Positions 1 through 55,930 of a stretch of 64,000 bases of DNA are shown here, one piece after another. Source of the stretch: Escherichia phage TH09; the sequence record MT446387.1. One strand, written 5' to 3'. The translations under genes were made by a program, and so were the position numbers. The notes below the pieces were generated by a model that saw nothing but the letters and a program-made list of their open reading frames with translations, ran no database searches and was not told the DNA's origin. Positions within the stretch are counted from its first letter, which is position 1. Every line of letters starts with the position of its first letter.

Positions 1-663
1 ACCATTTCCGAAAAAGAAGCACAATGCATGAAGTTTCAGGTCTGGGATTATGTTCCATTAGTAGAAATATATGGTCTTCCTGCATTTCGTTTAAAGTATG
101 ATGTACGTTTTTCTAAACTAGAACAAATGACATCAGGCTATGATAAAGTAATTTTAATTGAAAACCAGGTAGTAAATAACCTAGATGAAGCTAAGGTAAT
201 TTACAAAAAGTATATTGATCAAGGTCTTGAAGGTATTATTCTCAAAAACGTTGATGGGTTATGGGAAAATGCCCGTTCAAAAAATCTCTATAAATTTAAA
301 GAAGTAATTGATGTTGATTTAAAAATTGTAGGAATTTATCCTCACCGTAAAGACCCTACTAAAGCAGGTGGATTTATTCTTGAGTCAGAGTGTGGAAAAA
401 TTAAAGTAAATGCTGGTTCAGGCTTAAAAGATAAAGCCGGCGTAAAATCACATGAGCTTGACCGTACTCGCATTATGGAAAACCAAAATTATTATATTGG
501 AAAAATTCTAGAGTGCGAATGCAACGGTTGGTTAAAATCTGATGGCCGCACTGATTACGTTAAATTATTTCTTCCGATTGCGATTCGTTTACGTGAAGAT
601 AAAACTAAAGCTAATACATTCGAGGATGTATTTGGTGATTTTCATGAGGTAACTGGTCTATGA
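1..663 (+). CDS. 30: ATP-dependent DNA ligase, C-terminal part (5' end lies outside the window)
   Basis: Frame 1 is open from base 1; the 211-aa ORF translation matches the C-terminal region of T4 DNA ligase as recalled (EGIILKNVDGLWENARSKNLYKFKEV...). Confidence 0.9.
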   Translation, partial: TISEKEAQCMKFQVWDYVPLVEIYGLPAFRLKYDVRFSKLEQMTSGYDKVILIENQVVNNLDEAKVIYKKYIDQGLEGIILKNVDGLWENARSKNLYKFKEVIDVDLKIVGIYPHRKDPTKAGGFILESECGKIKVNAGSGLKDKAGVKSHELDRTRIMENQNYYIGKILECECNGWLKSDGRTDYVKLFLPIAIRLREDKTKANTFEDVFGDFHEVTGL

Positions 664-848
664 AAGCTTACTTAGAAACAATTGTCATTGCTCAAAAAGA
701 AGGTGGAGATGTTTCTACTTCTGTATCACAAGTCATTCTCGAATTTGTAGATGCATACGCTTATAATAAATTTACAGAAACATTTGATGCCTATGAAAAA
801 GGACCAAAGTTTGAAATATATCGTACTCTCTTACCACTAGATTACTAA
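660..848 (+). CDS. hypothetical small protein (62 aa)
   Basis: ORF whose ATG overlaps the ligase stop (ATGA); followed by a hairpin terminator. No recognisable motif. Confidence 0.5.
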   Translation: MKAYLETIVIAQKEGGDVSTSVSQVILEFVDAYAYNKFTETFDAYEKGPKFEIYRTLLPLDY

Positions 849-870
849 AGGCCTTCGGGCCTTTAATTTT
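847..870 (+). terminator. hairpin (UUCG loop) plus T-run
   Basis: aaaggccTTCGggccttt followed by aatttt. Confidence 0.6.
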
Positions 871-877
871 ATAAATA
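870..877 (+). promoter_or_regulatory. late promoter TATAAATA (alt)
   Basis: Exact TATAAATA 20 nt upstream of the alt ATG. Confidence 0.7.
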
Positions 878-897
878 GAATAAACACTAGAGAGGCT

Positions 898-2994
898 ATG
901 ATGGAACTTATTACAGAATTATTTGACGAAGATACTACTCTTCCGATTACAAACTTAAATCCAAAGAAGAAAATACCGCAAATTTTTTCAGTTCACGTTG
1001 ATGATGCAATTGAACAGCCAGGCTTTCGTTTATGCACCTATACATCTGGAGGTGATACTAATCGCGATTTAAAGATGGGCGATAAAATGATGCATATTGT
1101 TCCTTTTACATTAACTGCTAAAGGTTCAATTGCTAAATTAAAAGGTCTTGGTCCAAGCCCAATTAATTATATCAATTCAGTTTTTACTGTTGCAATGCAA
1201 ACTATGCGTCAGTATAAAATTGATGCCTGTATGCTCCGTATTCTTAAGTCTAAAACCGCTGGTCAAGCTCGACAAATTCAAGTTATTGCTGATAGACTTA
1301 TCCGTAGTCGTTCAGGTGGTAGATACGTCCTTCTTAAGGAACTCTGGGATTACGATAAAAAGTATGCATATATTCTTATACATCGCAAAAATGTATCACT
1401 AGAAGACATTCCAGGAGTTCCGGAAATTAGTACCGAGCTCTTTACTAAAGTTGAATCAAAGGTCGGTGATGTTTATATCAATAAAGATACTGGAGCTCAA
1501 GTAACTAAAAATGAGGCAATTGCTGCATCTATTGCGCAAGAAAACGATAAACGTTCTGACCAAGCTGTAATCGTTAAAGTTAAAATTTCCCGTAGAGCAA
1601 TTGCACAAAGTCAATCATTAGAATCTTCTAGATTTGAAAGTGAATTATTCCAAAAGTATGAATCTACCGCAGCTAATTTCAATAAACCTGCTACGGCTCC
1701 TTTAATTCCCGAAGCAGAAGAAATGAAGCTTGGAATTAATTCATTAGCTTCTAAAACTAAAGCAGCAAAAATCATTGCCGAAGGAACTGCAGATGAACTT
1801 CATTATGACTATAAATTCTTTTCAAAAAGTGAGGTTAATGAAGTTTCTGAAAAAATTAAAGATGTAATTCTTAATGCGATTAAAAATGAACCAACTACTT
1901 CAATAAAATGTTTAGAGAAATACGCAGCAGCTGTAAATCAATTCTTTGAAGATTATAAAGATAAATGGCTTGCTAATCATAATAAAAATCGTAAAGGACA
2001 ACCAGATGAAGTCTGGGAAGAAATAACTAAAAATTCCTGGAACGCAGCAAAAACTAAATTCCTCAAACGAATGATTTACAGTTTTTCTGGAATTGGTGCT
2101 GGTCCAATGATTGATATTACTATTGCCCGCGATGGTTCTAAATATACTCCATCACAAAAGCGTGGCATTAGAGAATATTGCGGTTCAGGATATACTGACA
2201 TCAATAATCTTCTTTTAGGTCGTTACAATCCAGAACGATATGATGTAATGAGTGAAAAAGAAATTGAATCTGCTATAAATAACTTAGATTCAGCTTTTGA
2301 AAATGGTGACCGCATACCGGAAGGCATCACAGTTTATCGTGCTCAAAGTATGACTGCTCCTATATACGAAGCACTAGTTAAAAATAAAGTGTTCTATTTC
2401 AGAAATTTTGTATCTACTTCTTTAACTCCTATCATTTTTGGACGTTTTGGAATTACACATGCTGGTATTGGTCTTTTAGAACCAGAAGCTCGTAATGAAT
2501 TGACAGTTGATAAAAATGAAGAAGGAATAACTATTAATCCAAACGAAATAAGAGCGTATAAAGAAAATCCTGAATACGTTAAAGTTCAAATAGGATGGGC
2601 AATTGATGGAGCTCATAAAGTTAATGTTGTATATCCAGGAAGTCTCGGAATAGCAACAGAAGCTGAAGTTATTCTACCGCGCGGATTGATGGTCAAAGTT
2701 AATAAAATAACTGATGCTTCTAATAATGACGGAACCACGTCTAATAATACAAAACTCATTCAAGCTGAAGTTATGACCACGGAAGAGCTCACCGAATCGG
2801 TAATCTATGATGGAGACCATTTAATGGAAACCGGCGAAGTAGTTGCAATGACAGGTGATATTGAAATAGAAGACAGAGTTGACTTTGCATCATTTGTTTC
2901 ATCAAATGTTAAACAAAAAGTAGAATCATCTCTTGGAATTATTGCGTCTTGCATAGATATTACAAACATGCCTTACAAGTTCGTTCAAGGATAA
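898..2994 (+). CDS. alt: Alt ADP-ribosyltransferase, capsid-packaged and injected
   Basis: 698-aa ORF; N-terminus MMELITELFDEDTTLPITNL and overall sequence match recalled T4 Alt; ART-like motifs (FYFRNFVSTSL, EAEVILPRG); TATAAATA late promoter 20 nt upstream. Confidence 0.9.
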   Translation: MMELITELFDEDTTLPITNLNPKKKIPQIFSVHVDDAIEQPGFRLCTYTSGGDTNRDLKMGDKMMHIVPFTLTAKGSIAKLKGLGPSPINYINSVFTVAMQTMRQYKIDACMLRILKSKTAGQARQIQVIADRLIRSRSGGRYVLLKELWDYDKKYAYILIHRKNVSLEDIPGVPEISTELFTKVESKVGDVYINKDTGAQVTKNEAIAASIAQENDKRSDQAVIVKVKISRRAIAQSQSLESSRFESELFQKYESTAANFNKPATAPLIPEAEEMKLGINSLASKTKAAKIIAEGTADELHYDYKFFSKSEVNEVSEKIKDVILNAIKNEPTTSIKCLEKYAAAVNQFFEDYKDKWLANHNKNRKGQPDEVWEEITKNSWNAAKTKFLKRMIYSFSGIGAGPMIDITIARDGSKYTPSQKRGIREYCGSGYTDINNLLLGRYNPERYDVMSEKEIESAINNLDSAFENGDRIPEGITVYRAQSMTAPIYEALVKNKVFYFRNFVSTSLTPIIFGRFGITHAGIGLLEPEARNELTVDKNEEGITINPNEIRAYKENPEYVKVQIGWAIDGAHKVNVVYPGSLGIATEAEVILPRGLMVKVNKITDASNNDGTTSNNTKLIQAEVMTTEELTESVIYDGDHLMETGEVVAMTGDIEIEDRVDFASFVSSNVKQKVESSLGIIASCIDITNMPYKFVQG

Positions 2995-2997
2995 ATC

Positions 2998-5055
2998 ATG
3001 GAACTTATTACAGAATTATTTGACGGCGCTTCGGCGCCGGTTGTTAACTTAAATCCTAAGCATAAAATACCGCAAATTTTTGCTATTCAAGCCGGCGAAG
3101 AAAGTGTGCTTCCTGGATTTAGATTTTGTACATACACCTCTGGCGGTGATACAAATAAAAACGTTAAGCCAGGCGATAAAATGATGCATATCGTAATGAT
3201 AGGTGTCAATGAGAAACTATCGCTCGTTAAACTTAAAAACTTGGGTGGAAATCCAATTGGTGTCATTAATGCGGTTTTTGATACTGCTCTTCAAACAATG
3301 AAACAGTATAAAATTGATGCATGCTTATTCCGCGTACTAAAGAGTAAAACAAATGGCGCAGCTCGTCAAATGCAAGTTATTGCTGACCGTTTAGTACGTA
3401 CTAAAGGAGCAGGTCGATATGCTCTTTTAAAGGAAATCTGGGATTACGATAAAAAGTATGCATATATTATGGTTTACCGTAAAAATGCCAATTTAGAAGA
3501 CATTCCAGGTGTACCTCCTATTTCAACTGAGTTATTCACAAAAGTTGAATCAAAGGTTGGTGATGTTTATGTAGACGTTAAAACAGGTAATGCTGTTCCT
3601 AAAGCTGTTGCTGTTGCTGCTTCTATTGCCTTAGAAAATGATAAGCGCACGGATCAAGCTGTTATTCAGAAAACTAAAATTAGTCGTCGATTAGCAGCAC
3701 AAGCTCAATATTCTACTGTTGATGCTTCACTTCAGGGTGATAGCTTCGCTGCTAAGAAATATCAAGAGTTTGAATCTAAAGTTCCGGTATATAAAGCAGA
3801 AGGACCAATGAACTCCGGGGTTATCCAGATTGGTTCAAACTTTAACAAAGGAGCTATCGGTGGTATGAGAAGTGCTTCTCGTTTTAAATCTAATGATTAT
3901 GAACTAGAAAGTTTCCGAAATCATATTGCATTAGCCCATGCGCGTTTACGTGATCCATCTATCAAGTTGCAGAGCGATATAACATATCAAGGTTCTCAAG
4001 AATATTTAAAGAATAAAGAATTCTTTGATTATAAAACTGATAAAATTTTAAGCGATCTTGCTGACATTAATATTTCTAATAGCTTTGATGTTATTAAGAA
4101 AATTATCAATGATTTAGTTAAAGGTTCTAAAGCTACACCAGATGAAAAGACAGCTATTATTCAATTTGTCATGAATGGCATTTATAAATTGATTAATGAA
4201 TCTGCCGCTCAGGCATATGAATACGCGAGCACCGAAGTAACTCCAAAAGGATTAACTCAAGCTGAATCTGATGTAATTGAAGATTATTGTGCAGATTCAT
4301 ATGTTGAAATGAACTCGTTCCTTTTGGGTAAACCAGATTCTACCCGCGAAGAATATATGGAACGAGCTATTAAACATATTGAGACGCTTGATTCTGCATT
4401 CGCTAAAGGTTCAGTTCTTCCTCCAGGAACTACACTTTACCGTGGACAAGAAGTTACATTTAAAACTTTGCGTCATAACATTGAAAACAAAATGTTCTAT
4501 TTCAAGAACTTCGTATCCACATCGCTTAAACCAAATATCTTCGGTGAGCATGGTAAAAACTATATGGCCTTAGATGATTCCGGCGCAGTATTTTCTGGTG
4601 AAGGAGAAGGTTCCGTTGATGCAGAAGATTTGATGCATATGGGTAGTCATTCTACATATGCTAGTGAAGATGCCGAAACTAGCGTGGGTATGGTAATTAA
4701 AGGAGCTGAGCGAATCAAAGTTATCGTTCCAGGTCATTTATCAGGATTTCCATCAGAAGCTGAAGTTATTCTACCACGTGGAATTTTACTGAAGATTAAT
4801 AAAGTAAGTACGTACTTTATGAAAGAAACTGCTTATAACAAGTATCTAATCGAAGGTACAATCGTTCCTCCTTCTGAACAATTAGAGGAATCAGTATATG
4901 ATGGCGACCATTTGATGGAAACTGGTGAAGTTCGTCCAATGACTGGATTTAATCAATTCCTTGTCGAAGAATCAAAAGAAGAGGAAAACGAAGTTTCTCA
5001 AATCTTAGCTTCTTTGGTTAACATTAACGGAATGTCTAAAAAGTTCAAAATGTAG
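2998..5055 (+). CDS. Alt-like ADP-ribosyltransferase paralog
   Basis: 685-aa ORF starting 4 nt after the alt stop. N-terminal ~220 aa and C-terminal ART region (FYFKNFVSTSL, SEAEVILPRG, YDGDHLMETGEV) are clearly paralogous to the upstream Alt; the middle region is divergent. Confidence 0.8.
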   Translation: MELITELFDGASAPVVNLNPKHKIPQIFAIQAGEESVLPGFRFCTYTSGGDTNKNVKPGDKMMHIVMIGVNEKLSLVKLKNLGGNPIGVINAVFDTALQTMKQYKIDACLFRVLKSKTNGAARQMQVIADRLVRTKGAGRYALLKEIWDYDKKYAYIMVYRKNANLEDIPGVPPISTELFTKVESKVGDVYVDVKTGNAVPKAVAVAASIALENDKRTDQAVIQKTKISRRLAAQAQYSTVDASLQGDSFAAKKYQEFESKVPVYKAEGPMNSGVIQIGSNFNKGAIGGMRSASRFKSNDYELESFRNHIALAHARLRDPSIKLQSDITYQGSQEYLKNKEFFDYKTDKILSDLADINISNSFDVIKKIINDLVKGSKATPDEKTAIIQFVMNGIYKLINESAAQAYEYASTEVTPKGLTQAESDVIEDYCADSYVEMNSFLLGKPDSTREEYMERAIKHIETLDSAFAKGSVLPPGTTLYRGQEVTFKTLRHNIENKMFYFKNFVSTSLKPNIFGEHGKNYMALDDSGAVFSGEGEGSVDAEDLMHMGSHSTYASEDAETSVGMVIKGAERIKVIVPGHLSGFPSEAEVILPRGILLKINKVSTYFMKETAYNKYLIEGTIVPPSEQLEESVYDGDHLMETGEVRPMTGFNQFLVEESKEEENEVSQILASLVNINGMSKKFKM

Positions 5056-5084
5056 TTTACAAGTCCCTCGTGTTGTGTTATAGT
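5055..5084 (+). promoter_or_regulatory. early-type promoter (GTTTAC, 18 nt, TATAGT) with overlapping inverted repeat
   Basis: Sequence match to the T-even early promoter pattern upstream of the 96-aa ORF. Confidence 0.5.
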
Positions 5085-5115
5085 AATCTTACTGACATAA
5101 CATGAGGAACACAAA

Positions 5116-5406
5116 ATGAAATCTTCTTTGCGCTTTTTAGGTCAAGAACTTGTAGTTGAAGGCGTTATTCCTGCTGATAATGCTTTTAATGAAGCAGTTT
5201 ACGATGAATTTATCAAAATTTTTGGAACAGATAAAAAGTTCGGAATTTTTCCTTCTGAAAATTTTTCAAAGCCAGAACAGACTGAAAGCATTTTCCAAGG
5301 TGTAGTAACAGGTAAATTTGAGTCAGAAGCTCCGGTAAAAATTGAAGTTTATATTGAAGACAGTTTAGTTGCTTCAGTTGCTGCTTTTATTTCATTCCGT
5401 AAATAA
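5116..5406 (+). CDS. hypothetical protein (96 aa)
   Basis: ORF preceded by an early-type promoter (GTTTAC, 18 nt, TATAGT) and followed by a bidirectional hairpin. Confidence 0.5.
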   Translation: MKSSLRFLGQELVVEGVIPADNAFNEAVYDEFIKIFGTDKKFGIFPSENFSKPEQTESIFQGVVTGKFESEAPVKIEVYIEDSLVASVAAFISFRK

Positions 5407-5411
5407 AAATA

Positions 5412-5432
5412 TGGGGACCTTTCGGTCCCCAT
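5412..5432. terminator. bidirectional hairpin between convergent genes
   Basis: atggggacc-tttc-ggtccccat with A/T runs on both sides. Confidence 0.65.
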
Positions 5433-5434
5433 TG

Positions 5435-6400
5435 TTATATTGCTCCTAATATTTTACTTTGCGAGTTGACAATTCCCGTCATAGTATTAATGTTTGAAAT
5501 GCTTCCAGCAGTTCCTCCTAATCTACTAAGTCGTGAAAGCGAATTAGATAATCCAGTAACACCTCCACTATTTCCGAGAACACTTTGAATGCCATTTATA
5601 GCAGCAGATTCAAGCCACTCAAGCGCAGCTTGTCTATCAACCGACCCAGCCTGCATGACTCTATACGCAAAAGTAACATCAAATGTAGTTATTTGGTTAT
5701 CTCCATCATATGATAACTCAGGAGCGCTCACTGACACTGGAATGCATCCGGTGAACATCACCGCAGTATGAGGTAATCCATTACGAGCATGAAGATTAAC
5801 CTGAATATCTGCCTCGACATCCTGTGGCAAAGCACGCAATCCAGTTACTGGGTCTTGAACAGAGTTAACCCAGTCTTGCATTGCACGATAGTTACAAGCT
5901 TCTGAATCCATTCTAAATGAAATAACCAAAGGGTCTAATTCTCTTCCGGTTATACGAATATTAGGAGAATTATAGTTCCAGTCAGTTTCATAAGATAATC
6001 TATTCTCTGGCATTTTTACAGAGTATATCATCAATCCAGATGAGTTATATGCCATGTTAAAGAAGTCAATTAAATATGTACCAACTGTAAATGAGCCCAA
6101 TAAACTTTGAACTGTACGTTGACTCATGGCACCAATAAGATATTTACTAACCCCTGATTTTCTTATCAGTTTTTGTGTGCCAGCAGTAATTAGCGTGGTA
6201 ATTCCCTGATTAATATCGCCTTGAGACAATCCTAACCAGTCTGAATTTAGACCCAAGTTATTATAAGAAAAGTTGCTAATTGAACTTATCAACGAAGAGC
6301 TTTTAGTTGATGGAGTTGTCGCAAAAACGCAGCTAAACATATTATTACGTTGGAAATCTGCGTTTATTGCTTGATTATTAAATTCCTCTAAAGAATACAT
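5435..6400 (-). CDS. 54: baseplate tail-tube initiator gp54
   Basis: 321-aa ORF; position and length match T4 gp54; recalled sequence similarity. Confidence 0.85.
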   Translation of the reverse strand: MYSLEEFNNQAINADFQRNNMFSCVFATTPSTKSSSLISSISNFSYNNLGLNSDWLGLSQGDINQGITTLITAGTQKLIRKSGVSKYLIGAMSQRTVQSLLGSFTVGTYLIDFFNMAYNSSGLMIYSVKMPENRLSYETDWNYNSPNIRITGRELDPLVISFRMDSEACNYRAMQDWVNSVQDPVTGLRALPQDVEADIQVNLHARNGLPHTAVMFTGCIPVSVSAPELSYDGDNQITTFDVTFAYRVMQAGSVDRQAALEWLESAAINGIQSVLGNSGGVTGLSNSLSRLSRLGGTAGSISNINTMTGIVNSQSKILGAI

Positions 6401-7494
6401 TAAAAAGTCCCCGCATATAAAGAAGCACGGTTTAACGTGATAATTTCTCTCATAGTAATCTCGAGAGTAAATGTACTAGGGAGGTTTGGAGCAATAGCTA
6501 ATCCGTTAAAGTTACCATTAGGCGTTTTATCAAATCTAATGCTTTGTATTTGGCATGGACCAAATATTTCCGTTTTTCCATCAAACTTAGATGTTGCACC
6601 AAAGTTTTTCACCATCCAAATTGTCGGGTTTGAAACTACTAGAACGTTAGTTAAACTCGATGTCATTTTCTCAAATAGTGTTTTATTTTTAGCTGCGTCT
6701 TCCGGAGATAAAGGTTCAATTAACGTAGAACGATACCAATCATCTAAATACCCCTTTATTTCAGCAGCATATTGAGATTTACCAGTTTCACCATAAGAAA
6801 AATAGTTAAAATATTGATAGATATTAATAATAGCCATTAAATCTTCTGTTGAACGTGGAGTCAAATCCCAAGTAAACACTTTAGTTCTATTTTCAGCACC
6901 ACCATACATACTTCGAGCCGTAGTGTATATTTGTTCATTATTATCAGCCATTATACCTTGTGTTATACTTTCCAGTGCTCCAAATACTGCAGTTGAAGCA
7001 ATATTACTTAGCACACCAGTAGCAGTACCTCCGCCTCTGCTGATAAGACTTTCTTGAACATCATTAAATCTATGTGATGATGTATCAACATCGGATTTAG
7101 ATCTTGGTAAAAGAATATTTGCAACAGGGGCTTTACTTATTGTTCCTGAATTATTATCTGATATTAATCCATTTGACAGTTTTGATACTGTATTACTGAT
7201 AGTGTTTCTGGCTGTACGTAAAATACTCGAAGATGAAGAAGAGTAGTTAGATCTCATCGATCTAAGACTTCCAGAATCCCTAGATGACATATTGTATGCA
7301 GTAAATAATAATCCATTCTTATATAGATCTGTTACCTGGAAGTCCCCTGTAGTGTCATTACCACTAGCACGCCCAGTTGGAAACTGGGCTGTGTATGTTT
7401 TAGTTCCTACTTCTGATTTAGTACTCTGTCCGGCTGAAATTTTCTCACCGGACTTTTTAATTAAATCAGCAGTTATTTCTTTAACAATTGCCAT
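6400..7494 (-). CDS. 48: baseplate tail-tube junction protein gp48
   Basis: 364-aa ORF, same length as T4 gp48; conserved position between 54 and 29. Confidence 0.85.
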   Translation of the reverse strand: MAIVKEITADLIKKSGEKISAGQSTKSEVGTKTYTAQFPTGRASGNDTTGDFQVTDLYKNGLLFTAYNMSSRDSGSLRSMRSNYSSSSSSILRTARNTISNTVSKLSNGLISDNNSGTISKAPVANILLPRSKSDVDTSSHRFNDVQESLISRGGGTATGVLSNIASTAVFGALESITQGIMADNNEQIYTTARSMYGGAENRTKVFTWDLTPRSTEDLMAIINIYQYFNYFSYGETGKSQYAAEIKGYLDDWYRSTLIEPLSPEDAAKNKTLFEKMTSSLTNVLVVSNPTIWMVKNFGATSKFDGKTEIFGPCQIQSIRFDKTPNGNFNGLAIAPNLPSTFTLEITMREIITLNRASLYAGTF

Positions 7495-54753: not shown

Positions 54754-54826
54754 TGGGAATTAGCCAAGTTGGTAAGGCACTGGATTTTGATTCCAGGATG
54801 CAAAGGTTCGAGTCCTTTATTCCCAG
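54754..54826 (+). tRNA. tRNA-Gln (anticodon TTG)
   Basis: Hand-folded cloverleaf: acceptor tgggaat/attccca, anticodon loop ttTTGat, T-loop ttcgagt. Confidence 0.85.
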
Positions 54827-54827
54827 C

Positions 54828-54914
54828 GCGAGAATGGTCAAATTGGTAAAGGCACAGCACTTAAAATGCTGCGGAATGATTTCCTTGTGGGTTCGAGTCC
54901 CACTTCTCGCACCA
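54828..54914 (+). tRNA. tRNA-Leu (anticodon TAA), type II, CCA encoded
   Basis: Acceptor gcgagaa/ttctcgc, anticodon loop ctTAAaa, long variable arm, T-loop ttcgagt. Confidence 0.85.
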
Positions 54915-54919
54915 AATTT

Positions 54920-54993
<74 letters not shown>

Positions 54994-55003
54994 ATTTAAT
55001 TTA

Positions 55004-55077
55004 CTCCGTGTAGCTCAGTTTGGTAGAGCGCCTGATTTGGGATCAGGAGGTCCAAGGTTCAAATCCTTGTATGGAGA
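55004..55077 (+). tRNA. tRNA-Pro (anticodon TGG)
   Basis: Acceptor ctccgtg/tatggag (two G-U pairs), anticodon loop ttTGGga, T-loop ttcaaat. Confidence 0.8.
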
Positions 55078-55079
55078 CT

Positions 55080-55169
55080 GGAGGCGTGGCAGAGTGGTTT
55101 AATGCACCGGTCTTGAAAACCGGCAGTCGCTCCGGCGACTCATAGGTTCAAATCCTATCGCCTCCGCCA
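55080..55169 (+). tRNA. tRNA-Ser (anticodon TGA), type II, CCA encoded
   Basis: Acceptor ggaggcg/cgcctcc, anticodon loop ctTGAaa, long variable arm, T-loop ttcaaat. Confidence 0.85.
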
Positions 55170-55174
55170 GTTTT

Positions 55175-55250
55175 GCTGATTTAGCTCAGTAGGTAGAGCA
55201 ACTCACTTGTAATGAGAAGGTCGGCGGTTCGATTCCGTCAATCAGCACCA
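55175..55250 (+). tRNA. tRNA-Thr (anticodon TGT), CCA encoded
   Basis: Acceptor gctgatt/aatcagc, anticodon loop ctTGTaa, T-loop ttcgatt. Confidence 0.85.
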
Positions 55251-55251
55251 A

Positions 55252-55326
55252 GGCCCTGTAGCTGGAAGGTTCAAGCAAGCGACTCATAATCGCCAGATGG
55301 TGGTTCAATTCCACCCAGGGCCACCA
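55252..55326 (+). tRNA. tRNA with anticodon CAT, probably the AUA-reading tRNA-Ile of T-even phages (could be Met)
   Basis: Acceptor ggccctg/cagggcc, anticodon loop ctCATaa, T-loop ttcaatt. Confidence 0.75.
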
Positions 55327-55339
55327 AATTAAGAATTAA

Positions 55340-55426
55340 GGGGAGTTATCCCGTAGAGGTAGCGGTGTGGACTGTAAATCCATTGTCATTGCGACTCGGG
55401 TGGTTCGACTCCATCACTCCCCACCA
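55340..55426 (+). tRNA. tRNA-Tyr (anticodon GTA), type II, CCA encoded
   Basis: Acceptor ggggagt/actcccc, anticodon loop ctGTAaa, long variable arm; the D-arm fold is slightly atypical. Confidence 0.7.
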
Positions 55427-55430
55427 ATTT

Positions 55431-55505
55431 GGATGTGTAGCTCAATGGCAGAGCGATCGCCTGTTAAGCGATTGGTTATAGGTTCGAATCCTATCACGTC
55501 CGCCA
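55431..55505 (+). tRNA. tRNA-Asn (anticodon GTT), CCA encoded
   Basis: Acceptor ggatgtg/cacgtcc, anticodon stem atcgc/gcgat with loop ctGTTaa, T-loop ttcgaat. Confidence 0.8.
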
Positions 55506-55509
55506 AATA

Positions 55510-55585
55510 CGAGGCATAGCTCAGAAGGAAGAGCAAGGACCTTCTAAGTCCTGGGTCGTAGGTTCGATCCCTACTGCCTCGACCA
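55510..55585 (+). tRNA. tRNA-Arg (anticodon TCT), CCA encoded
   Basis: Acceptor cgaggca/tgcctcg, anticodon stem aggac/gtcct with loop ctTCTaa, T-loop ttcgatc. Confidence 0.85.
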
Positions 55586-55589
55586 AACA

Positions 55590-55930
55590 AGAAGCCGGGT
55601 CGCTACCGGTAAGTCGTCGGACTGATGTTCCCTGGGTAAGGACTGGCATTAACAAATCTTTACGATCGGTTAATGCCCCCTTACATCACAGCAGAAACGG
55701 CGCACCGAATTATCGATTCGAGGAAATATCTTTGCCGTAAGCCGAGTAGCGTTTTTGACGGAACGTTCGGATATGGTTGAGATATGGCCTTTTAAAATAT
55801 TAAGTAGCGTCAACTGCTTAATAACCGGGTTCGAATCCCGGCGTTTCGTACAAACACTTGCCTTAGCAGGTGGAACCCCGACAAGGTTGCCGCAAGGCTT
55901 AGCCCCGACCGAAAGGTTGGGGCTTTTTGG
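55590..55930 (+). ncRNA. structured non-coding RNA region directly after the tRNA cluster (one or two small stable RNAs; boundaries uncertain)
   Basis: About 340 nt without a plausible ORF, GC-richer than its surroundings; 8-bp hairpin gcattaac/gttaatgc near 55646..55677; tRNA-like T-arm ccggg-ttcgaat-cccgg at 55825..55841; ends in a GAAA-tetraloop terminator. The position corresponds to the small stable RNAs of T4. Confidence 0.5.
55902..55930 (+). terminator. hairpin (GAAA loop) plus T-run ending the small-RNA region
   Basis: gccccgacc-gaaa-ggttggggc followed by ttttt. Confidence 0.7.

Follow-up and report, generated by a model that had tools for sequence, protein, structure and literature searches.

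Two adjacent plus-strand genes of Escherichia phage TH09 (record MT446387.1), alt1 and alt2, code for two proteins of the T4 Alt ADP-ribosyltransferase (ART) family, and we analyzed them within a window of 64,000 nucleotides (nt), which is the whole stretch of DNA under study and the reference for all positions given here. The gene order runs from the end of the DNA ligase gene gp30 (28-663) through alt.1 (660-848), alt1, alt2 and alt.-3 (5116-5406) to the convergent baseplate genes 54, 48 and 29, and this position of alt, between gene 30/alt.1 and alt.-3/gene 54, is conserved as in T4. Positions 600-5500 are 100% identical to Escherichia phage JLBYU22 (OK272484.1, Tequatrovirus sf22). No minus-strand or overlapping genes were found within 898-5055, where the list of open reading frames (ORFs) held only two further short, out-of-frame plus-strand entries. 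The original prediction, made from the sequence alone, had given the two products as 698 and 685 amino acids (aa), with the genes 4 nt apart; the length of Alt2 stands, while Alt1 is likely 697 aa, starting at ATG 901 (MELITE...) and not at ATG 898 (698-aa ORF), because the Shine-Dalgarno sequence GAGAGG (890-895) ends only 2 nt before 898, and the gap between the alt1 stop and the alt2 ATG is 3 nt (ATC). The GenBank coding sequence also starts at 901, and the T4 Alt protein opens with the same MELITE.

The proposal that these genes are tandem Alt ADP-ribosyltransferase paralogs was borne out. Alt1 and Alt2 aligned by BLASTP over their full length with 42% identity (E 4e-161), a resemblance which, judged by this alignment, is far beyond chance. 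Both matched Pfam PF03496 ADPrib_exo_Tox (Alt1 1.7e-37, 129.1 bits; Alt2 5.9e-20, 71.9 bits; curated cut-off 23.4 bits) and PHROG 802, 'Alt-like RNA polymerase ADP-ribosyltransferase' (Alt1 E 3.8e-273 over residues 1-696, Alt2 E 9.8e-257 over 1-685). Identity to T4 Alt is 72% for Alt1 and ~42% for Alt2 (T4-type 682-aa Alts), and Alt1 and T2 Alt are 98% identical. Neither protein was matched by any NCBIfam model, and the sequence search of PDB returned no solved Alt structure, with weak matches to CDTa and iota toxin for Alt1 and none for Alt2. All full-length homologs carry, beside PF03496, a precomputed match to Pfam PF26846.1, a family which did not appear in our Pfam scan of Alt1 and Alt2 at E <=0.01 and which probably represents a more recent model of the N-terminal part of Alt. 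With full-length homology, catalytic residues, ART fold, gp21 site motifs, genome position and late-promoter context all present, Alt1 and Alt2 are ordinary, already annotated members of the T4 Alt family.

Alignment divided the two proteins into four parts (Alt1 residue numbers): an N domain (1-238) with 67.5% aa and 68.5% nt identity, a middle (239-410) with 13-23% aa identity depending on the alignment, an ART domain (411-630) with 35% aa identity and conserved catalytic motifs, and a C-terminal tail (631-697) with 46-48% aa identity and an invariant YDGDHLMETGE. Within the ART domain, Alt1 and Alt2 share 9-23% identity from S-T-S to E-x-E, where the substrate-recognition loops of related toxins are found. 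AlphaFold2 models built from shallow alignments (mean predicted local distance difference test, pLDDT, 76.6 for Alt1 and 73.7 for Alt2) gave one layout for both proteins, namely an alpha/beta N domain, a long helical region, the ART beta-core and a disordered C-terminal tail. Pairwise alignment and structure prediction thus upheld the paralogy, the shared N-terminal block and the divergent middle of the original prediction, while the block extends to residue 238 and not to about 220, and the claim that the C-terminal ART region forms a second conserved end did not hold, since the ART domain belongs to the variable cassette and what is kept there are its motifs and, in part, the tail. Koch and Rueger (1994, Virology) reportedly compared gpAlt of T2, T4 and T6 and noted conserved ends and a variable centre; a T6 alt sequence is available as record X69894.1. 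The features of the locus are listed in Table 1.

Table 1. Positions of the genes, protein regions, motifs and signals at the alt locus of phage TH09 (window coordinates).
Feature	Position	Strand	Remarks
Terminator-like hairpin	846-865	+	directly 3' of alt.1, 5' of the alt operon; 8-bp stem, 4 G-C pairs, T-rich tail
T4-type late promoter motif TATAAATA	870-877	+	23 nt 5' of alt1 ATG
Shine-Dalgarno of alt1, GAGAGG	890-895	+	spacing fits ATG 901
alt1	901-2994	+	697 aa; positional ortholog of T4 alt, T2-type allele
alt1 N-terminal propeptide MELITE (gp21 site ITE-6)	901-918	+	motif; predicted
alt1 N-terminal alpha/beta domain, aa 7-238	919-1614	+	AlphaFold2 pLDDT ~70-88; proposed head-incorporation module
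alt1 all-helical middle, aa 239-410	1615-2130	+	AlphaFold2 helices; most divergent region between paralogs
alt1 cassette near-identical to WG01 gp200, codons ~400-630	~2098-2790	+	codon-level identity profile
alt1 ART catalytic domain, aa 411-632	2131-2796	+	Pfam match, catalytic residues
alt1 R480	2338-2340	+	catalytic residue
alt1 S-T-S 505-507	2413-2421	+	catalytic motif
alt1 E-A-E 587-589	2659-2667	+	catalytic motif
alt1 gp21 site LTE 630-632	2788-2796	+	motif
alt1 C-terminal propeptide, aa 633-697	2797-2991	+	predicted; YDGDHLMETGE; pLDDT mostly <50 from residue 651
alt2	2998-5055	+	685 aa; second Alt paralog
alt2 N-terminal propeptide MELITE (ITE-6 motif)	2998-3015	+	motif; predicted
alt2 N-terminal alpha/beta domain	3016-3726	+	AlphaFold2 model
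A5 run in alt2	3157-3161	+	one A lost in T4, frameshift splitting alt.-1 from alt.-2
9-nt direct repeat, left copy CTAAAGAGT	3337-3345	+	CTAAAAAGT in T2 and EH2; left end of T4 deletion
alt2 helical middle	3727-4242	+	alignment, AlphaFold2 model
alt2 ART domain	4243-4890	+	Pfam match, catalytic residues
alt2 R482	4441-4443	+	catalytic residue
alt2 S-T-S 507-509	4516-4524	+	catalytic motif
alt2 E-A-E 587-589	4756-4764	+	catalytic motif
alt2 gp21-type site LEE 629-631	4882-4890	+	motif
alt2 C-terminal tail, aa 632-685	4891-5052	+	predicted propeptide; YDGDHLMETGE; pLDDT <50 for 630-685
9-nt direct repeat, right copy CTAAAAAGT	5036-5044	+	right end of 1,699-bp T4 deletion
Sigma-70-like promoter, TTTACA-17 nt-TG-TATAGT (extended -10)	5056-5084	+	one base past alt2 stop, precedes alt.-3; consensus match only
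Bidirectional terminator hairpin	5411-5432	.	between alt.-3 and convergent gene 54

The late-promoter core TATAAATA, which lies upstream of alt1, occurred 24 times in the whole window against 9.7 expected from shuffles, and none of 100 shuffles reached 24. At the junction of alt1 and alt2, the window scan detected no TATAAATA and no other promoter-like or terminator-like signal, the copy at 2274 being within alt1. Since the Shine-Dalgarno sequence of alt2 (AAGGA) is placed in the last codons of alt1 and no signal separates the genes, alt1 and alt2 are most likely co-transcribed as one late transcript made during head assembly. The copies of TATAAATA in the window are mostly on the minus strand, where they precede structural genes.

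Both Alt1 and Alt2 look functional by their catalytic residues, their cleavage motifs and the selection acting on alt2. R, S-T-S and E-x-E are invariant in an alignment of 17 family members reaching Klebsiella, Acinetobacter and RB49-type phages, and E6 and the glutamate of the C-terminal cleavage site are likewise invariant in 17/17. Moreover, alt2 is under strong purifying selection: among six Tequatroviruses, its ratio of nonsynonymous to synonymous substitution rates (dN/dS) was 0.02-0.07, equally low in all four regions, with 0.037 in the ART domain. For T4 Alt, ADP-ribosylation of host proteins such as RNA polymerase alpha at the expense of nicotinamide adenine dinucleotide (NAD+) is known (PMC9958956; PMC9026906; PMC11404850), and its E577A mutant is inactive (PMC11404850). 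The original prediction had itself named an inactive second copy as the outcome that would overturn it, and a decaying or catalytically dead Alt2 would agree with T4 and ~20% of its relatives, which have only a frameshifted, internally deleted remnant, and with the truncated ORF variants P0006, P0008 and P0010 in the protein database. However, the ORF in the window is intact, Alt2 keeps R482, S-T-S and E-A-E, the low ratio extends to the ART domain, and hundreds of isolates carry the protein with 97-99% conservation, so that a dead enzyme is highly improbable.

Previous studies on T4 found ~40 copies of Alt in the prohead core and mature head (PMC9958956; PMC9026906), ejection of Alt into the host with the DNA, together with many internal proteins (PMC9026906), and trimming of Alt by the prohead protease gp21, which cuts at ITE-6 to remove 6 residues from the N terminus and at LTE-619 to remove 63 from the C terminus (PMC5694885); record X15811.1 also states the 6-residue N-terminal cleavage. 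Both proteins of phage TH09 possess ITE-6 and, at a homologous position, an L-x-E motif (LTE-632 in Alt1, LEE-631 in Alt2). The assignment of the N-terminal part to packaging and processing in the original prediction fits these motifs and the grouping of N domains by lineage described below. In the light of T4 Alt biology, the conserved ends would be the parts tied to head incorporation and maturation and the variable centre the working part of the mature enzyme, and we propose the N domain as a putative head-incorporation module. Alt2 might instead never be delivered and act late inside the producing cell, or be mainly a structural or core component of the head, since expression from a late operon is compatible with a late intracellular role, and virion proteomics covering Alt2 was not found in the literature. 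Yet Alt2 has kept ITE-6, the L-x-E site and YDGDHLMETGE, and its N domain shares 68% identity with the one in packaged Alt1/T4 Alt; such features have no obvious purpose outside prohead assembly, and we therefore regard an undelivered Alt2 as improbable.

The whole 4.9-kb stretch was found at >=80% coverage in 353 phage records. Alt2 was at least 90% identical in ~401 records, T2 included, and was full-length in 401 of the 502 Tequatrovirus records, while the T4-type junction appeared as one contiguous stretch in six of 30 evenly sampled records; the two independent estimates agree on an intact alt2 in about 80% of Tequatrovirus records and T4's deletion in about 20%. The alt1-alt2 pair is thus the usual Tequatrovirus state, and it is already known, with annotations in several hundred phage genomes. 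In RefSeq, the two genes go under the name 'Alt-like RNA polymerase ADP-ribosyltransferase', and alt paralogs in T4, RB49 and 44RR were noted earlier by Nolan et al. 2006 (PMC1524935). What is new here is the account of the T4 remnant, the constraint on alt2, and the pattern of modules and cassettes, including an ART swap between genera.

The T4 record describes alt.-1/alt.-2 as 'an old duplication of the first part of gene alt'. We found that this fragment (MT984581.1, 4553-4938) corresponds to the 5' 343 nt of alt2 with ~96% DNA identity (329/343 aligned bases), joined to the last ~20 nt of alt2 through a 1,699-bp deletion, and that the loss of one A in the A5 run accounts for the split into two reading frames. 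The two ends of the deletion are marked by a 9-nt direct repeat (consensus CTAAA(G/A)AGT), whose copies match perfectly in T2 and EH2. PHROGs 23015 and 15247, which hold alt.-1/alt.-2 under 'unknown function', scored 2e-40 and 3e-38 with Alt2 versus 1e-21 and 2e-19 with Alt1. On this sequence evidence, T4 alt.-1/alt.-2 is the remnant of a full-length alt2 and not a mere partial duplication of alt. Because alt2 is gone in T4 and in about one fifth of its relatives, we consider it an accessory gene, which fits a host-dependent benefit. Several assemblies repeatedly contain the truncated Alt2 variants P0006, P0008 and P0010 (624, 528 and 415 aa; identity 97-99%), which may stem from additional, independent disruptions of alt2 or from differing gene calls.

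The number of Alt genes at the equivalent locus differs among genera. Escherichia phage WG01, a Dhakavirus, has three tandem Alt-like genes (1012-7124; 631, 693 and 707 aa), a single Alt is present in Klebsiella phage K65 and likewise in Acinetobacter phage Acj9, and in RB49 alt is directly followed by a 274-aa ORF (4540-5364) annotated as similar to the Alt C-terminal part, an ART without the N-terminal delivery domain. Bootstrapped neighbour-joining trees were built separately for the N domain and the ART domain, and their topologies conflict: the ART tree grouped the proteins by gene position across genera (Alt1 with the WG01 second copy and T4 Alt, Alt2 with the WG01 third copy, 100% bootstrap each), whereas the N-domain tree grouped them by genome or genus (98-100% bootstrap). 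The identities followed the same division. Within one genome, this phage or WG01, identity between paralogs is 64-68% for the N domain and 35-38% for the ART domain, while N domains between genera are only 43-47% identical. Alt1 and the WG01 second copy (gp200) share 47% (46.6%) identity in the N domain, 65% in the middle, 94.5% in the ART domain and 51% in the C tail; Alt2 and the WG01 third copy share 47%, 44%, 57% and 66%, respectively; and Alt1 and T4 Alt share 99.6%, 32%, 65% and 95%. At the codon level, the similarity of alt1 to WG01 gp200 is confined to codons ~400-630, inside which nt identity is ~0.92 (third positions ~0.8), against ~0.55 (~0.35) in the flanks; we read this profile as the trace of a catalytic cassette that was exchanged between genera fairly recently. 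In phage CHD94UKE2, a T4-type alt1 occurs together with a complete alt2, and therefore alt1 alleles appear to reassort against a nearly uniform alt2. N domains that follow lineage and ART domains that follow position, together with the 94.5% ART versus 47% N-domain identity of Alt1 and WG01, indicate that the alt locus may consist of a lineage-specific delivery module fused to exchangeable ART cassettes.

Synonymous sites between the N domains of Alt1 and Alt2 are near saturation (synonymous divergence, dS, ~1.2), so the grouping of N domains by genome is old. Recent gene conversion between the N domains was considered and rejected, given this dS value and the longest identical DNA blocks of only 28-32 nt. 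The Alt N-domain family is small, with 69 representatives among 1.84 billion proteins, and the domain is always N-terminal. The idea that it is a general delivery module for cargo other than ART was unsupported, as PF03496 was present in eight of the ten most atypical of the 69 representatives; of the other two, P0183 ends in a degenerate, ART-like C-terminus, and in P0184 no ART could be recognised. P0184 (541 aa) matched the Alt N domain weakly over residues 27-162 (E 5.9e-7), showed no ART domain or motif, and may possibly be a delivery domain on a different cargo.

From these results, we propose that alt1 and alt2 form a late bicistronic operon whose products, two mono-ADP-ribosyltransferases of the T4 Alt family, are specific for arginine. 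Four parts would make up each of them: a 6-residue propeptide cut at ITE-6, an alpha/beta domain of ~230 residues, a helical region with a C3/Vis/VIP2-type ART, and a C-terminal propeptide of ~55-65 residues cut at L-x-E. After late synthesis, both Alts would be built into the prohead core via the N-terminal and terminal elements that they share and be trimmed at both ends by gp21; the mature enzymes would then be ejected along with the DNA and, in the first moments of infection, ADP-ribosylate proteins of the host at the expense of its NAD+. The two enzymes would most likely act on different or partly overlapping sets of host proteins, because the helical region has diverged almost completely, as have the S-T-S/E-x-E loops, which recognise substrates in related toxins; the altered target specificity of Alt2 that the original prediction had read from the divergent middle is therefore plausible. 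Taken as a whole, we think it probable that Alt1 and Alt2 are both packaged, trimmed by gp21 and injected, with a common delivery module and chemistry and with host targets that differ or overlap in part.

Alternatively, Alt2 could be a redundant copy that modifies the targets of Alt1 (RNA polymerase alpha and others) and thereby does no more than increase the amount of ART injected or provide insurance against loss, as the two belong to one family with one catalytic motif, equal arginine specificity is predicted from E-x-E, and T4 thrives without alt2. The low identity in the ART domain (35%), the helical region (13-23%) and the S-T-S/E-x-E loops (9-23%) argues against this, as does the retention of each type by gene position across Tequatrovirus and Dhakavirus under strong purifying selection; pure redundancy seldom lasts that long, and we judge it unlikely here. 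We more tentatively entertain a stronger version of divided targets, in which Alt2 is an injected effector with a target unlike that of Alt1, for example a host defence or stress-response protein, and the alt locus is a hotspot where the delivery module meets ART warheads from different genera. T4 Alt has been reported to modify the MazF toxin. Several points weigh against the preferred reading of two injected enzymes with different or partly overlapping targets. Our literature searches found no experimental data on the function or virion presence of a second Alt, so that its packaging, injection, activity and targets are assigned by homology; the role of the N domain in head incorporation is drawn from the phylogenetic pattern and the conserved cleavage motifs; the grouping of N domains by genome could also have arisen through ancient concerted evolution, through independent duplications, or because the domains co-evolved with lineage-specific head components; and T4 and ~20% of related records have no functional alt2, which is thus dispensable at least on laboratory hosts.

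Nearly all that is known of ADP-ribosyltransferases injected by phages was learned from T4, which carries only the broken remnant of alt2, while most sequenced T4 relatives, T2 included, appear to inject two Alts, and some genera may inject three. If Alt2 has targets of its own, the early host takeover in typical T-even phages would depart from the textbook account of T4, and alt2 could aid host range or counter-defence; if the locus is a hotspot, T4 would under-represent the injected enzyme repertoire of its relatives. Further, the module pattern provides a concrete hypothesis for the diversification of injected effectors and points to a way in which T4-type heads might be engineered to carry cargo.

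Around the alt genes, the start of alt.1 overlaps the ligase stop by 4 nt, and its 62-aa product matches Pfam PF24647 'Phage blade protein' (1.9e-29), while GenBank labels it a putative GnsA/GnsB toxin. Given the sigma-70-like promoter behind alt2, alt.-3 (DUF5498, 96 aa) would be an early gene between the late operon and the convergent baseplate genes. Elsewhere in the window, a tRNA cluster (54754-55851) contains ten tRNAs supported by Rfam (Gln, Leu, Gly, Pro, Ser, Thr, Met/Ile-CAU, Tyr, Asn and Arg), and a 94-nt 'tRNA-Lys' (55758-55851) was called by ARAGORN alone and may be a different small stable RNA; T4 has eight tRNAs.

Among known systems, T4 Alt is the closest to Alt1 and Alt2, with the same locus, four-part architecture, catalytic motif and gp21 cleavage motifs. 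Alt1 differs from it as a T2-type allele, whose N domain is nearly that of T4 (99.6%) while the middle (32%) and the ART domain (65%) are not, and Alt2 represents a separate subfamily absent from T4, with an ART domain 35% identical to that of T4 Alt. The T4 alt.-1/alt.-2 genes differ from alt2 by the 1-nt loss in the A5 run and the 1,699-bp deletion. Other tandem Alts of Straboviridae (WG01, and 44RR and RB49 according to Nolan et al. 2006, PMC1524935) are alike in locus and architecture, with copy numbers of 1-3 and lineage-specific N domains.

The R-S-E toxins of the C3-like, Vis and VIP2-iota-CDTa types have the fold and active site in common with Alt, although sequence identity is only 14-26%. 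The stretch from S-T-S to E-x-E covers ~78 residues in Alt and roughly 36 in C3, an estimated ~40 extra. Unlike the C3-like and binary toxins, Alt has a phage-specific N domain and propeptides and is delivered by the phage head, not by secretion or a binding component; no gene for a binding or translocation B-component partner is present, the alt genes lying in a phage head and baseplate context. Alt1 and Alt2 are thus not members of the C3 or binary toxin systems, despite a like catalytic mechanism. The T4 internal proteins IPI-IPIII, with their capsid-targeting sequence, and polymorphic toxins likewise join a conserved delivery element to cargo that varies between related phages; in contrast to IPI-IPIII, Alt loses only 6 N-terminal residues, its large N domain stays in the mature protein, and its cargo is almost always an ART.

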